The translations under genes and the position numbers were made by a program. The notes under the pieces are model-generated. The model was not told the origin of the DNA, searched no databases, and saw only the letters and a list, made by a program, of their open reading frames with translations. A stretch of DNA of 64,000 bases from a phage, in the sequence record PV946933.1; one strand, 5' to 3'. This document shows positions 53,603 through 63,055 of this stretch, piece after piece (positions within the stretch are counted from its first letter, which is position 1; each line of letters opens with the position of its first letter).

Positions 53603-53875
53603 ATGAAAACTTTCAAAGAGTTTATCGTTGAATCTGCTCTTAATGAAGAAGTAAAAATTAGCAAATCTGTTAAGACTATGATTGATAATATAAATCATCT
53701 TTATAACATTGATTTGACGAATCATGTAACGTTAGGAAATAAACGAAACTTTTTTGTATTTGATATTTCAGAACTTGATCAGAATCAAATTAATAATATT
53801 GAACGCTTTGCTAATGAAAAAGGTCTGCGTCACGAGACGGCTGGTTATAAAAAATATGCAATTTATTTAAAATAA
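53603..53875 (+). CDS. internal-protein-like head protein with capsid-targeting leader (ipI position, 90 aa)
   Basis: N-terminus MKTFKEFIVE; position next to 57B. Confidence 0.6.
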   Translation: MKTFKEFIVESALNEEVKISKSVKTMIDNINHLYNIDLTNHVTLGNKRNFFVFDISELDQNQINNIERFANEKGLRHETAGYKKYAIYLK

Positions 53876-53878
53876 ATT

Positions 53879-53920
53879 GTTTACACGGTGGTTTAGTTGT
53901 GATACTATTACCCTATCAAA
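53879..53920 (+). promoter_or_regulatory. early promoter with stem-loop (PeSL-like) copy 2
   Basis: GTTTAC...GTGATACTATTACCCTATCAA. Confidence 0.55.
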
Positions 53921-53942
53921 ACAAAACTAAATGGAAATCAAA

Positions 53943-54251
53943 ATGAAAACATATCAAGAATTTATCAATGAAGCGGCTGCACCAAAGACATTCGTTATTA
54001 ATACTCAGGCGAGTCTTGATGATGAGTACGCGGAGGCAATTCTGAGGTCACTTGCTAAGAACGGCGTTGAAGTAATCGCCTCGGACTTTAAGAAAGGGGC
54101 TTCCGAGATGTTTATTTCTATAACTAAAGGATCTAAAGCTAAAATCAAATCATCATTCGGTGTTGCTCGTACCGATCAAATCGACAATCATGACTTTAAA
54201 CAAACTGGTGTTAAACGGCAGAACACAATTGCATCACGCGGAATAAAATAG
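53943..54251 (+). CDS. IPII-paralogous internal protein with capsid-targeting leader
   Basis: MKTYQEFINE leader; body aligns with the ipII product (PKTFVINTQASLDDEYAEAI vs PKVFQICSQGNLDKEYVDAI). Confidence 0.65.
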   Translation: MKTYQEFINEAAAPKTFVINTQASLDDEYAEAILRSLAKNGVEVIASDFKKGASEMFISITKGSKAKIKSSFGVARTDQIDNHDFKQTGVKRQNTIASRGIK

Positions 54252-54263
54252 TTTATAAAAACA

Positions 54264-54305
54264 GTTTACTTTTAGATGGGGTAGTGATACTATTACCCTA
54301 TCAAC
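54264..54305 (+). promoter_or_regulatory. early promoter with stem-loop (PeSL-like) copy 3
   Basis: GTTTAC...gatggggta-GTGATACTAT-taccctatc. Confidence 0.55.
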
Positions 54306-54321
54306 TACTGAGGAGAATAAA

Positions 54322-54507
54322 ATGAAACGTTGTGAATTAATTCGAAATGTTGCTATTGCAATTTCTGCTTCCGCTTTTAGTTTTTCAATGTTTGTTGGAT
54401 TTATATGCGGATTATTAACTACAGCAGAAAATGTTTTTTCACTTGTAGTAGCATTTTTAATTGGTTTAATCGCTATTGTTATGGATAAAATTTCTAAAGG
54501 TGAATAG
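54322..54507 (+). CDS. small hydrophobic (membrane) protein, 61 aa
   Basis: two predicted hydrophobic segments; GAGGAG RBS. Confidence 0.5.
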   Translation: MKRCELIRNVAIAISASAFSFSMFVGFICGLLTTAENVFSLVVAFLIGLIAIVMDKISKGE

Positions 54508-54508
54508 A

Positions 54509-54886
54509 ATGTATAAAGTGTACGCGGATTATCAGGCTAATCCATCTAAAAAGCCAAGCTGTCAAATAGGATGGGCTCATGATACTTTGCTTGAAGCAGT
54601 AGATGCTGCTCAAAAATTGGGATATAAATATGTAGAGATTGTTCAACTACCATCAGGAAAAGTTATTACTCTTGAAGAGTTCAATAATATTAAACCAAAC
54701 TTTTTACTTTTTGCAGGTGATAATTATTATCCTCGTGGTGGATATGATGATTTGATTGCGTATGCTGAAACAGAAGATGAATTACGCCAAATTATTGAAG
54801 ACAATAAATCAAAACGATTTGGCGATAGTTTTGACTGGTGGCAAATCGTAAATGCCCATACACATACTATTGTTGATAAAGGTTAA
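54509..54886 (+). CDS. hypothetical protein (125 aa)
   Basis: ATG at 54509 with AAAGGTGAA RBS. Confidence 0.5.
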   Translation: MYKVYADYQANPSKKPSCQIGWAHDTLLEAVDAAQKLGYKYVEIVQLPSGKVITLEEFNNIKPNFLLFAGDNYYPRGGYDDLIAYAETEDELRQIIEDNKSKRFGDSFDWWQIVNAHTHTIVDKG

Positions 54887-54888
54887 TA

Positions 54889-60415: not shown

Positions 60416-60759
60416 ATAAAGTCAAATATTCGTTTTCTGAGTCATTTTTAATTTTTGCTGTGGCGTTGGCTGCAGCTCTTGCGGGTAGTCTTTTTGGATT
60501 GTTAATTGACTGTCTTATTTTAAACATCGACGGCACAGTAAATATAACAGAAGTTTGGAGTGAGCTTTGTTATACTAAAATTATTTCATTATTTTCATTC
60601 TTTGGTATCATTTTATATTTTCATTATGATAACTTTAAAATAAATTGGCAAAGAAAAAAGGATTACAAAATACAATTAAAAGAATATAATAGCTACATTT
60701 CTTATATTGAAAATGAAGCAATGAAAGAGTTTGTGAGTGATTGCAGGAAATTAAAATGA
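60397..60759 (+). CDS. small membrane protein (120 aa)
   Basis: hydrophobic segments; overlaps neighbours by a few codons. Confidence 0.45.
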   Translation: MQKPKLNKVKYSFSESFLIFAVALAAALAGSLFGLLIDCLILNIDGTVNITEVWSELCYTKIISLFSFFGIILYFHYDNFKINWQRKKDYKIQLKEYNSYISYIENEAMKEFVSDCRKLK

Positions 60760-61196
60760 AAACATTATCAGCTGGTATTATCTTTATGACAGAAGATAAA
60801 GATTTATTCATGGGACGGGTTACTGGTTCTCGTAAGCCTGGAATGATGGCCCATCGCTGGGATATTCCAAAGGGCCGTGTAGAAAATTCTGATTTAAGCG
60901 CACTAGAGGCAGCACGAAGAGAGTGTTTAGAAGAGACTGGCTTTAGCAATTATAATCCAGACCTTCTAGAAGACCTAGGTGTATTTAAATATTCTAGTAA
61001 TAAAGACCTACAGTTATTTTATTATACGATTCCAGTAGAGCATGAGATGTTTAGAAATTGCCATTGTGAGTCTTATTTTGAAAATAAAGATGGCGTTATG
61101 ATTCCAGAGATGGACGCTTTTGCTCTTATTCCTCGTACTCAGTGGCAATATGTGATGGGTCCTTCACTTTACCGAATAATGAGCAACCTCTTTTAA
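60741..61196 (+). CDS. nudE: Nudix hydrolase NudE
   Basis: Nudix box [24 protein letters not shown]; 151 aa; adjacent to e. Confidence 0.85.
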
Positions 61197-61233
61197 TTTT
61201 ATAAATACCTTCTATAAATACTTAGGAGGTATT

Positions 61234-61728
61234 ATGAATATATTTGAAATGTTACGTATAGATGAAGGTCTTAGACTTAAAATCTATAAAGACACAGAAG
61301 GCTATTACACTATTGGCATTGGACATTTGCTTACTAAAAGTCCATCACTTAGTGTTGCTAAATCTGAATTAGATAAAGCTATTGGGCGTAATTGCAATGG
61401 TGTAATTACAAAAGATGAGGCTGAAAAACTCTTTAATCAGGATGTTGATGCTGCTGTTCGCGGAATTCTGAGAAATGCTAAATTAAAACCGGTTTATGAT
61501 TCTCTTGATGCTGTTCGTCGTTGTGCATTGATTAACATGGTTTTCCAAATGGGAGAAACCGGCGTAGCAGGATTTACTAATTCTTTACGTATGCTCCAAC
61601 AAAAACGCTGGGATGAAGCAGCAGTTAACTTAGCTAAAAGTCGATGGTATAATCAAACACCTAATCGCGCAAAACGAGTCATTGCCACGTTTAGAACTGG
61701 TACGTGGGACGCGTATAAAAATTTATAA
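61234..61728 (+). CDS. e: lysozyme (endolysin) e
   Basis: 164 aa; [31 protein letters not shown] recognised as T4 lysozyme with a few substitutions. Confidence 0.95.
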
Positions 61729-61743
61729 AGTTGTTTACTTTCT

Positions 61744-61772
61744 CCTAGAACTGTGATAGTATATTCATAGTT
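61744..61772 (+). promoter_or_regulatory. early-promoter-like GTTTAC ... TGATAGTAT
   Basis: -35 at 61744-61749; -10 at 61764-61772. Confidence 0.5.
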
Positions 61773-61799
61773 ACTAATTAAAATATTTAAAGGAACCAT

Positions 61800-62117
61800 A
61801 TGAAAACGTTTAAAGAATTTATTGCAGAATCTGCCCAAGGACAACGTGTAGAAGGCGGTTATATCTGGATTGAACAAGTTGAGCCGCCAAGTCGCACTTC
61901 TACAGGTAAATGGAAAATCACTGTTGATGGTCCTGGTGGTAAACGTAGGACTCTTAAAGAAATTAACGGGTACTATGAAGAAGCTCTTTCTGACGCGGGT
62001 ACTTATATGATGCAAATCATGATTAAAAACCCAGAAAATCGTTTTGCGGCTAGAGTTTTCCGCCGTATTGGAAATAAGCTTTATGATGCATATTCTAAAA
62101 ACTTCCCTAAAGAATAA
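61800..62117 (+). CDS. internal-protein-like head protein with capsid-targeting leader (105 aa)
   Basis: N-terminus MKTFKEFIAE; basic body. Confidence 0.6.
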   Translation: MKTFKEFIAESAQGQRVEGGYIWIEQVEPPSRTSTGKWKITVDGPGGKRRTLKEINGYYEEALSDAGTYMMQIMIKNPENRFAARVFRRIGNKLYDAYSKNFPKE

Positions 62118-62132
62118 AAATAAAGGAAATAC

Positions 62133-62711
62133 ATGAAAACCTATAAAGAATTTATCGCTGAAGCTTCTGTAGTAAAGGCCAAAGGCATTAATAAAGATGA
62201 GTGGACTTATCGTGGCGGAAACGGCTTTGACCCTAAAACTGCTCCACTTGAACGATATCTAGCCACAAAAGCTTCTGATTTTAAAGCCTTCGCCTGGGAA
62301 GGACTTCGCTGGCGTAACGATCTAAATATTGAAGTTGACGGACTTAAATTTGCTCATATTGAAGATGTTGTTGCTAGTAACTTAGACGCAGCTTTTGTTA
62401 AAGCCGACAGTGATCTTCGTCGCTGGAATTTAAAACTGTTCTCTAAACAAAAAGGCCCGAAGTTTGTGCCTAAAGCCGGTAAATGGGTCATTGATAATAA
62501 ATTAGCTAAGGCTGTCAACTACGCTGGTCTTGAATTCGCCAAGCACAAATCATCATGGAAAGGTCTTGATGCAATGGCTTTCCGTAAAGAATTTGCCGAT
62601 GTTATGGCTAAAGGCGGCTTTAAGGCAGAAATAGATACCTCTAAAGGTACGTTTAAGGACGCTAATGTTCAGTACGCTTATGCCGTTGCTAATGCAGCCC
62701 GTGGTAATTAA
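62133..62711 (+). CDS. ipIII: internal protein III
   Basis: MKTYKEFIAE leader; 192 aa; position next to e; recalled similarity to T4 IPIII. Confidence 0.8.
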   Translation: MKTYKEFIAEASVVKAKGINKDEWTYRGGNGFDPKTAPLERYLATKASDFKAFAWEGLRWRNDLNIEVDGLKFAHIEDVVASNLDAAFVKADSDLRRWNLKLFSKQKGPKFVPKAGKWVIDNKLAKAVNYAGLEFAKHKSSWKGLDAMAFRKEFADVMAKGGFKAEIDTSKGTFKDANVQYAYAVANAARGN

Positions 62712-62752
62712 TAAGGCCTATACTTAGGCCTATTTACATTTAAAGGAAACAT

Positions 62753-63055
62753 ATGAAAACATTTAAAGAATTTATCACTGAAGCAAAAGCCCCGAAGGTT
62801 TTTCAAATTTGTTCACAAGGAAATTTAGACAAAGAATACGTTGACGCCATCGTAGCAAGCATTGTCAACCAAGGCGTGCAAGTAGATGCAGTTGAATTTA
62901 CCAAAGGCCCTACCTTTAATATCGTTGTATCTAAGGGTTCTTTGGCTAAAATTAAAAAGGCCTGGGGTGTTATGAGAGCTTACCAAGTAGATGATTCTGC
63001 TCCCGGGCCGAAAGTACGAATGAATACCCTTAAGGGAGGCCGTGAATACGTTTAG
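62753..63055 (+). CDS. ipII: internal protein II
   Basis: MKTFKEFITE leader; 100 aa; position. Confidence 0.75.
   Translation: MKTFKEFITEAKAPKVFQICSQGNLDKEYVDAIVASIVNQGVQVDAVEFTKGPTFNIVVSKGSLAKIKKAWGVMRAYQVDDSAPGPKVRMNTLKGGREYV

Follow-up and report, generated by a model that had tools for sequence, protein, structure and literature searches.

Seven ORFs share the capsid targeting sequence of T4

How many proteins does a T4-like phage send into its host along with its DNA, and what marks them for the journey? The question is raised by a stretch of 64,000 nucleotides (nt; 64 kb) from phage sequence record PV946933.1, referred to here as the window, which comes from a Tequatrovirus and extends from alt to vs.8. 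Seven open reading frames (ORFs) in it, starting at positions 53603, 53943, 56856, 57455, 61800, 62133, and 62753, open with the same 10-residue leader, MK[TS][YF]x[EQ]F[IL]xE. A preliminary description of the region proposed that this leader is a capsid targeting sequence (CTS) and that the ORFs form an enlarged set of internal proteins (Ips), which are packaged in the phage head and co-injected with the genome. Our analysis indicates that the seven ORFs are very probably the Ip repertoire of this T4-like phage.

With the window translated in all six frames, the strict motif had seven matches, every one of them on the + strand and at an ORF start, compared to 0 in 200 shuffles. These were exactly the ORFs named in the preliminary description, and all seven of its start coordinates were right. 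The leader profile that it had suggested was built as an 11-residue log-odds profile from 14 leaders and run on the ORF starts of the window. The seven ORFs stood apart at 27.4-41.5 bits; the next ORF start in the window scored 13.4 bits and the maximum over 30 shuffles was 8.8. The 13.4-bit start belongs to an ORF at 862 (+ strand), which was rejected as a CTS protein: it lacks Phe7 and Glu10 and matches the Pfam family 'phage blade protein'.

M1, K2, F7, and E10 are invariant among the seven leaders. Positions 3 (T/S), 4 (F/Y), 6 (E/Q), and 8 (I/L) vary conservatively, positions 5 and 9 vary freely, and the residue after Glu10 is S, A, or V in every case. T4 IpII and IpIII start MKTYQEFIAE and T4 IpI starts MKTFKEF. 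In T4, residues 1-10 of IpIII are enough for packaging, the propeptide directs the Ip into the scaffolding core, and gp21 cuts after L/I-x-E (PMC9026906). Mapping by amber suppression assigned targeting mainly to residues 4 and 7 and processing to residues 8 and 10, and Asp at residue 10 blocks cleavage while packaging is retained (PMC9026906). At these mapped determinants, all seven leaders carry F/Y at residue 4, F at 7, I/L at 8, and E at 10. Judged by its sequence, the leader is the T4 CTS, as the preliminary description had it. Because the leaders are invariant or conservative at the mapped residues, packaging and cleavage after Glu10 are the most likely fate of all seven products. The gp21 protease and gp22 core genes are both encoded in the window. 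The predicted mature forms, at 9.3-20.2 kDa with isoelectric points (pI) of 8.0-9.7, are comparable to the basic T4 Ips of ~8, 10, and 20 kDa (PMC9026906).

Each protein would thus be made with a 10-residue N-terminal CTS, which would carry it into the gp22 scaffolding core during prohead assembly. The gp21 prohead protease would cut after Glu10 at L/I-x-E, and the small basic mature protein would stay in the head with the DNA and be injected into the next host. There it would most likely neutralize a 'first-response' defense. To judge from Ip1, Ip2, Ip3, and Bas37_0260, it would act on individual variants of type IV restriction enzymes, for example GmrSD or McrBC. We infer these steps, and the targets, for each of the seven proteins.

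Behind the leader, the seven genes represent five body families. The bodies had been described as mostly unrelated, which holds across the five families but not within them: the 53943 product is a paralogue of the 62753 product (47% identity, E 1e-18), and those of 56856 and 57455 belong to the same PHROG. Only the 62133 product has a T4 protein match beyond the leader. Four of the seven ORFs (53603, 53943, 62133, and 62753) matched PHROGs named for an internal head or virion protein, and with 61800 the number belonging to families already called internal proteins comes to five. Pfam gave nothing above threshold for the seven proteins, and a PDB sequence search with six of them found no real relatives. 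A PDB match to dPPR10 was rejected since it was compositional and had no passing stretch.

The ipI and e-vs.8 loci

The order of genes on the + strand, compared with T4, is gene 1, 57A, 57B, 53603 and 53943, trna.4, trna.3, trna.2, and ten tRNAs. It continues with an extra ORF, homologues of rnaD and rnaC, 56856 and 57455, e.8 to e.3, nudE, e, then 61800, 62133, and 62753, and finally vs.8. The CTS-bearing genes therefore do flank the tRNA cluster and adjoin e, as had been noted.

The gene at 53603..53875 (+) adjoins 57B, where it replaces T4 ipI in position, and matches phrog_7673 'internal head protein' (E 9e-56); its orthologues in G4498 and HMD-9 carry that same annotation. The product has 90 amino acids (aa), with the leader MKTFKEFIVE followed by S (35.9 bits), and the mature form would be ~80 aa, 9.3 kDa, and pI 8.0. 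The second gene of the locus, 53943..54251 (+), matches phrog_2667 'internal head protein' (E 3e-42) and belongs to the Ip7 family, its product being 49% identical to VR25 ip7. That product has 102 aa, the leader MKTYQEFINE followed by A, and a mature pI of 9.7. In our ORF listing this gene begins farther upstream, at an ATG at 53931. We preferred 53943, which has GGAAA as a ribosome-binding site and is where the gene starts in the annotation of relatives.

Both genes of the ipI locus have an early promoter in front of them, at 53544-53572 before 53603 (TTTACA-17-TACTAT) and at 53880-53908 before 53943. These promoters lie in a 61-nt cassette that combines an early promoter with a stem-loop and occurs in three copies (53523-53583, 53859-53919, and 54244-54304, +; repeat family D3, 72-77% identity) bracketing both Ip genes, with promoter scan matches at 53544 and 53880. 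The stem, GATGAGGTA...TACCTCATC, is evident from the sequence itself. The cassettes resemble PeSLs, elements made of an early promoter and a stem-loop. PeSLs have been proposed as drivers of modular shuffling, and it was for the Ip locus that this idea was first put forward (PMC4122927). They share with the PeSL cassettes of T4-like phages (Arbiol 2010; Comeau 2014, PMC4122927) a TTTAC-N17-TACTAT overlapping a stem-loop, placed around each gene of the ipI locus. The repeat in the tRNA-e.8 interval, described below, differs in consisting of an intrinsic-terminator hairpin with a late promoter, not an early one.

Downstream of e, three CTS-bearing genes follow one another. The first, 61800..62117 (+), is inserted between e and ipIII and belongs to the Ip10 family. 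Its PHROG (phrog_3966) is of 'unknown function', but its product is 71% identical to the VR25 protein annotated 'ip10: putative internal head protein'; a few homologue records say internal head protein and most say hypothetical. The 105-aa product has the leader MKTFKEFIAE followed by S and a mature pI of 9.6. An early-promoter-like sequence, GTTTACT...GATAGTAT, lies upstream of this gene.

The second gene, 62133..62711 (+), is the ipIII orthologue. Its 192-aa product shares 94% identity with T4 IpIII across 192 aa (E 1e-136) and matches phrog_5341 'internal virion protein' (E 1e-117); the leader is MKTYKEFIAE followed by A, and the mature form would be 20.2 kDa with a pI of 9.65. The third, 62753..63055 (+), is again of the Ip7 family (phrog_2667, E 1e-37; 65% identity to VR25 ip7), with a 100-aa product, the leader MKTFKEFITE followed by A, and a mature pI of 9.5. 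The preliminary description had implied an IPII product for this gene. It occupies the position of T4 ipII, but only residues 1-12 align to T4 IpII, so it was rejected as an ipII orthologue and IpIII is left as the sole T4 orthologue in the set. Two exact late promoters, TATAAATA, at 61200 and 61213 lie upstream of e (61200..61220, +) and could supply late transcripts through e into 61800-63055 by presumed read-through.

There is no denV downstream of 62753, where T4 has it between ipII and vs.8; a vs.8 homologue at 63056-63673 (+) comes immediately after the Ip7-like gene. Its listed ORF of 179 aa aligns to T4 vs.8 residues 41-219.

A candidate third locus between the tRNA genes and e.8

The remaining two genes lie between tRNA-Arg/rnaC and e.8, outside both recognized Ip loci (57B-trna.4 and e-vs.8). 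The first, 56856..57329 (+), encodes 157 aa with the leader MKSYAQFLNE followed by V; the mature form would be 16.3 kDa with a pI of 9.2. The second, 57455..58018 (+), encodes 187 aa with the leader MKTYAEFLTE followed by A, and its mature form would be 19.7 kDa with a pI of 9.5. Both match phrog_2280 'unknown function' (E 3e-54 and 1e-52). Homologues were found in 512 phage records for 56856 and in 165 for 57455. They are called hypothetical throughout the matches listed, a spread sample in the case of 56856, and including for 57455 the Karam-lab annotation of RB14 (RB14ncORF136c).

An exact late promoter, TATAAATA, lies at 56809, 47 nt upstream of 56856, and a late-promoter-like sequence with one mismatch, AATAAATA, lies at 57409, 46 nt upstream of 57455. 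The promoter scan found no early promoter before either gene. A 71-nt terminator hairpin element (repeat D6) is present in two copies, 56776-56846 and 57334-57404 (+; stems 56779-56802 and 57337-57360), which flank the 56856 cassette so that one precedes each ORF; the first copy contains TATAAATA. T4 has a single copy of the terminator. T4 DNA aligns to the window over 56472-56811 (rnaD, rnaC, and the terminator) and resumes at 58027, and this gap indicates that 56856 and 57455 are insertions relative to T4.

The 56856 family keeps its leader in homologues down to 41% identity, with insertions and deletions exactly at the junction of leader and body. In Jiaodavirus KP1, the homologue starts MKFKEFLAE and has the same terminator and TATAAATA upstream. 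In the RB69 reference record, the homologue of 57455 (ORF149c/148c, L010:11429-11991) has the same leader and upstream sequence; a frameshift breaks it into two annotated ORFs, through either a sequencing error or decay into a pseudogene. The Bas37 genes that correspond to 56856 and 57455 are bas37_0244 and bas37_0243. The genes of phrog_2280 are kept in position across Tequatrovirus, Mosigvirus (RB69), and Jiaodavirus (KP1). The string F-L-T-E-A of the 57455 leader also occurs in the gp23 of this phage (...GSFLTEAEIGG), at what we take to be the T4 gp23 cleavage (maturation) site.

Although 56856 and 57455 share a PHROG, BLASTP aligns only their leaders and hhalign gives a probability of 17.7%. 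They are called paralogues here because of the shared PHROG and shared architecture only. AlphaFold models (predicted local distance difference test, pLDDT, of 72.9 for the 56856 product and 59.0 for the 57455 product) both start with a helical domain and end in a helical hairpin, with a disordered linker rich in K, P, and A between them.

A second L-N-E is found at residues 13-15 of the 53603 and 56856 products (..IVE-SALNE-E.. and ..LNE-VVLNE-A..), five residues past the first motif. gp21 may also cut here, as an alternative or in a second step; the propeptide would then be 15 residues long, which recalls the longer leaders of IpI and Ip5. This five-residue module is missing in some homologues (P0004, P0005).

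By sequence, 56856 and 57455 are probably internal proteins. Recent papers recognize two Ip loci (PMC12373910). We propose, tentatively and at somewhat less than even chance, that the stretch from tRNA/rnaC to e.8 is an unrecognized third Ip locus, whose phrog_2280 proteins would be packaged and injected and would have a target distinct from those of Ip1-10. Location in a known Ip locus is a habit of the Ip family, not a requirement.

What the internal proteins may do

The functions of T4-type Ips have been worked out in part. IpIII is required for T4 growth on ECOR17, and IpIII expressed in the host without its CTS still works (PMC9391042). Among the GmrSD type IV restriction enzymes, Ip1, Ip2, and Ip3 have a different target each (Silas et al. 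2025, PMC12373910): Ip1 inhibits GmrSD-CT596, Ip2 inhibits GmrSD-ECOR21/BrxU, and Ip3 inhibits GmrS1/GmrSD2-ECOR17. Bas37_0260, an Ip encoded at the ipI locus, inhibits McrBC (2025 preprint 10.1101/2025.11.20.689424); this protein is Ip6-like and absent from the window. The set described here shares the delivery tag and the loci of these injected type IV restriction inhibitors, and its IpIII is near-identical to the T4 protein. It differs in that none of the other six proteins is homologous to Ip1, Ip2, or Bas37_0260. The 62133 product presumably inhibits type IV restriction as T4 Ip3 does. The best-supported reading of the whole set, drawn by analogy, is that it would serve as an arsenal of injected inhibitors of modification-dependent restriction, with a known target for IpIII only, taken from T4.

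Several points weigh against this reading of the seven ORFs. When ip4-10 were tried against additional GmrSD variants, no reproducible new interactions were seen (Silas et al., PMC12373910), and the statement that all Ips inhibit GmrSD is therefore still a conjecture. We infer virion presence and cleavage for each of the seven products from sequence. For the phrog_2280 pair, we found no record or paper that calls them internal proteins, and a Foldseek search with the 56856 model brought up no informative structure, the best PDB match having an E of 1.8 and the BFVD matches all belonging to its own family. Virion proteomics of phrog_2280 proteins was likewise absent from the fPS-90 paper and from the results of our literature searches. 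Finally, 53603, 53943, and 61800 have early promoters and no canonical late promoter immediately upstream; for 53603 and 53943, the nearest canonical late promoter on the + strand is at 52470. Without an adjacent late promoter, the supply of these three proteins late in infection needs read-through or protein made earlier.

The packaged proteins could instead be mainly structural, acting in neutralization of DNA charge or in core and head morphogenesis and not in counter-defense. We judge this unlikely, though it is the strongest of the alternatives. All the mature forms are basic, a T4 head holds ~1000 Ip molecules, and IpIII- and triple-Ip mutants have aberrations of head assembly (PMC9026906). 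However, T4 Ips are non-essential, and all Ips to which a function has been assigned are specific inhibitors of type IV restriction. The rescue of ECOR17 infection by host-expressed IpIII lacking the CTS (PMC9391042) also argues against a mainly structural role, and an arms race would better account for how fast unrelated bodies replace one another at these loci.

Another explanation would place the shared start at the level of DNA, as a module of ribosome-binding site and first 30 nt that serves translation or recombination; some of the products, especially those of 56856 and 57455, would then be unpackaged cytoplasmic accessory proteins. The repeat (families D1 and D2) does reach back into the Shine-Dalgarno region, repeated promoters and terminators bracket the cassettes, PeSL shuffling is documented (PMC4122927), and the early promoters at 53603, 53943, and 61800 would suit such proteins. 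Conservation, however, is seen at the level of amino acids. All four Thr codons are in use at position 3 of the seven leaders, which points to selection on the peptide and not only on the DNA, and pairwise comparison gives 27 synonymous codon differences. The invariant residues coincide with targeting and cleavage positions that were defined experimentally (PMC9026906), and the KP1 leader, although one residue shorter, still ends L-A-E. For the two genes to which this explanation would best apply, the late promoters (exact at 56856, one mismatch at 57455) and the lack of an early promoter in the scan fit a virion component. Overall, a module at the DNA level is quite improbable as the main explanation.

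A short conserved N-terminus starting M-K could also suggest an export signal or membrane-targeting peptide, but the leader is amphipathic and acidic (K-E-F-I-x-E), only 10 residues long, has no hydrophobic core or signal-peptidase site, and matches the T4 CTS exactly, so a signal peptide was rejected on sequence and the chance of this reading is negligible. We therefore retain the reading of the seven ORFs as an Ip repertoire. Since the cassettes lie in hyperplastic loci and are bracketed by repeats and conserved leader DNA, they would be swappable by recombination.

The Ip repertoire in related phages

The preliminary description was correct in that the set is larger than that of T4, but such an expansion is usual in T-even phages. 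At the same loci, T4 has three CTS-bearing ORFs; PST, RB14, and Bas37 have 4 each; G4498 has 7, plus one with a degenerate leader (METYQKFIVE); HMD-9 has 8; and RB69 has 8-9. With relatives carrying 4-9 such genes, seven is a normal number for a T-even phage. The same loci in these relatives hold different bodies behind the same leader.

Compared with the T4 internal proteins, the proteins encoded here share the 10-residue leader, the L/I-x-E context, the positions by 57B and downstream of e, and a small, basic character. They differ in that T4 has no counterpart for six of the seven bodies, neither ipI nor ipII of T4 is present, and the interval that holds 56856 and 57455 contains only rnaC, a terminator, and e.8 in T4. 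At least 10 Ips, recognized by their signal sequence, have been reported in T-even phages (Repoila et al. 1994, as cited in PMC12373910). The polymorphic Ips (Ip4-Ip10+; Repoila et al. 1994, as described in PMC3012670, PMC4122927, and PMC12373910) likewise have unrelated bodies behind a conserved leader and occur several to a genome in hyperplastic loci, with Ip4, Ip5, Ip6, and others at the same sites in relatives. So far as these accounts go, there is no essential difference, and the window holds another mix of known cassettes.

The 9.7-kb Ip-bearing region matched 1193 phage records, nearly all from Tequatrovirus and its relatives. The best single record covers 88% of the region at 94.6% identity, and because no record covers more than that, the region is a mosaic.

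In IMG/VR, one narrow DNA pattern for MKT[FY][KQ]EFI.E found at least 120 stretches. The leader matches listed include at least 99 distinct proteins in at least ~44 body clusters, with reference sequences counted in. The exact T4-type leader (e.g., MKTYKEFIREA..) also heads larger proteins in environmental viral contigs of IMG/VR, at L075:4296-5000(-), L061:9584-10288(-), L038:2375-3064(-), L125:2627-3739(+), and L099:357-1520(-). Genes for a clamp loader, a sliding clamp, and a CobS-like protein give contig L061 a T4-like appearance. Several leader-headed bodies contain an S-adenosylmethionine (SAM) lyase family domain (PF23780, E 2.9e-15) and one has a cytidylyltransferase-like domain (PF01467). 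SAM lyase is a known anti-restriction activity. If packaged, these large proteins would be injected enzymes. A literature search found no mention of leader-headed SAM lyase or cytidylyltransferase-like proteins.

Other features of the window

The head-assembly genes gp24, gp23, gp22, gp21, gp68, gp67, and gp20 lie on the - strand of the window. Gene 21, the prohead core serine protease, is at 23360..23998 (-; Pfam Peptidase_S77, E 1.5e-111), and gene 22, the scaffolding core protein, is at 22520..23329 (-; Pfam T4_CASP, E 9e-90). The N-terminus of gp21 in this phage, MNEPQLLIE, contains the 'LIE-9' motif described in PMC9026906.

Two tandem alt-like ADP-ribosyltransferase paralogues are found at 1103-3157 (684 aa) and 3161-5218 (685 aa) on the + strand (Pfam ADPrib_exo_Tox). 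T4 has a single alt gene. The alt N-termini had been given as MELITELFDE, with a cleavage context related to that of the leader. Both paralogues do start MELITELFD and have I-T-E at residues 4-6 in common, but at residue 10 the first has Glu and the second has Gly. Because residue 10 differs, the gp21 site common to both is placed after Glu6, where cleavage would probably occur.

The tRNA cluster at 55274-56105 (+) has ten genes compared to eight in T4, Tyr and Asn being the extra ones, and no segB homing endonuclease interrupts it. The tRNA that ARAGORN calls Met(CAT) corresponds to the gene annotated as tRNA-Ile (CAU anticodon) in RB14 and T4. An extra 116-aa ORF follows tRNA-Arg at 56122-56472 (+); homologues of similar size occur in Bas37 (0245) and RB69 (ORF150c) and none in T4. 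The rnaD and rnaC homologues, at ~56472-56735, were found by blastn against T4 (90% identity); an Rfam scan detected tRNAs only and missed both.

Two ORFs are inserted among the head and tail genes, at 20185-20886 (+) between gp24 and gp23 and at 26925-27569 (-) adjoining gp18. The first resembles a GIY-YIG homing endonuclease (..YQITNIINGKIYIGAH..), and both are probably mobile elements.

Significance

The phenomenon itself is already known and typical of the genus: the CTS, gp21 cleavage, and a polymorphic Ip repertoire are textbook material, and the injected anti-restriction role of Ips was extended experimentally in 2022-2025. The one part that may be new is the phrog_2280 pair. For annotation, the gain is two widespread genes, 'hypothetical' in the matches listed (512 and 165 records), that have every sequence hallmark of an internal protein. 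The pair could join the candidates in screens that target first-response defenses, type IV restriction enzymes among them, and such screens bear on the prediction of host range for therapeutic T4-like phages.

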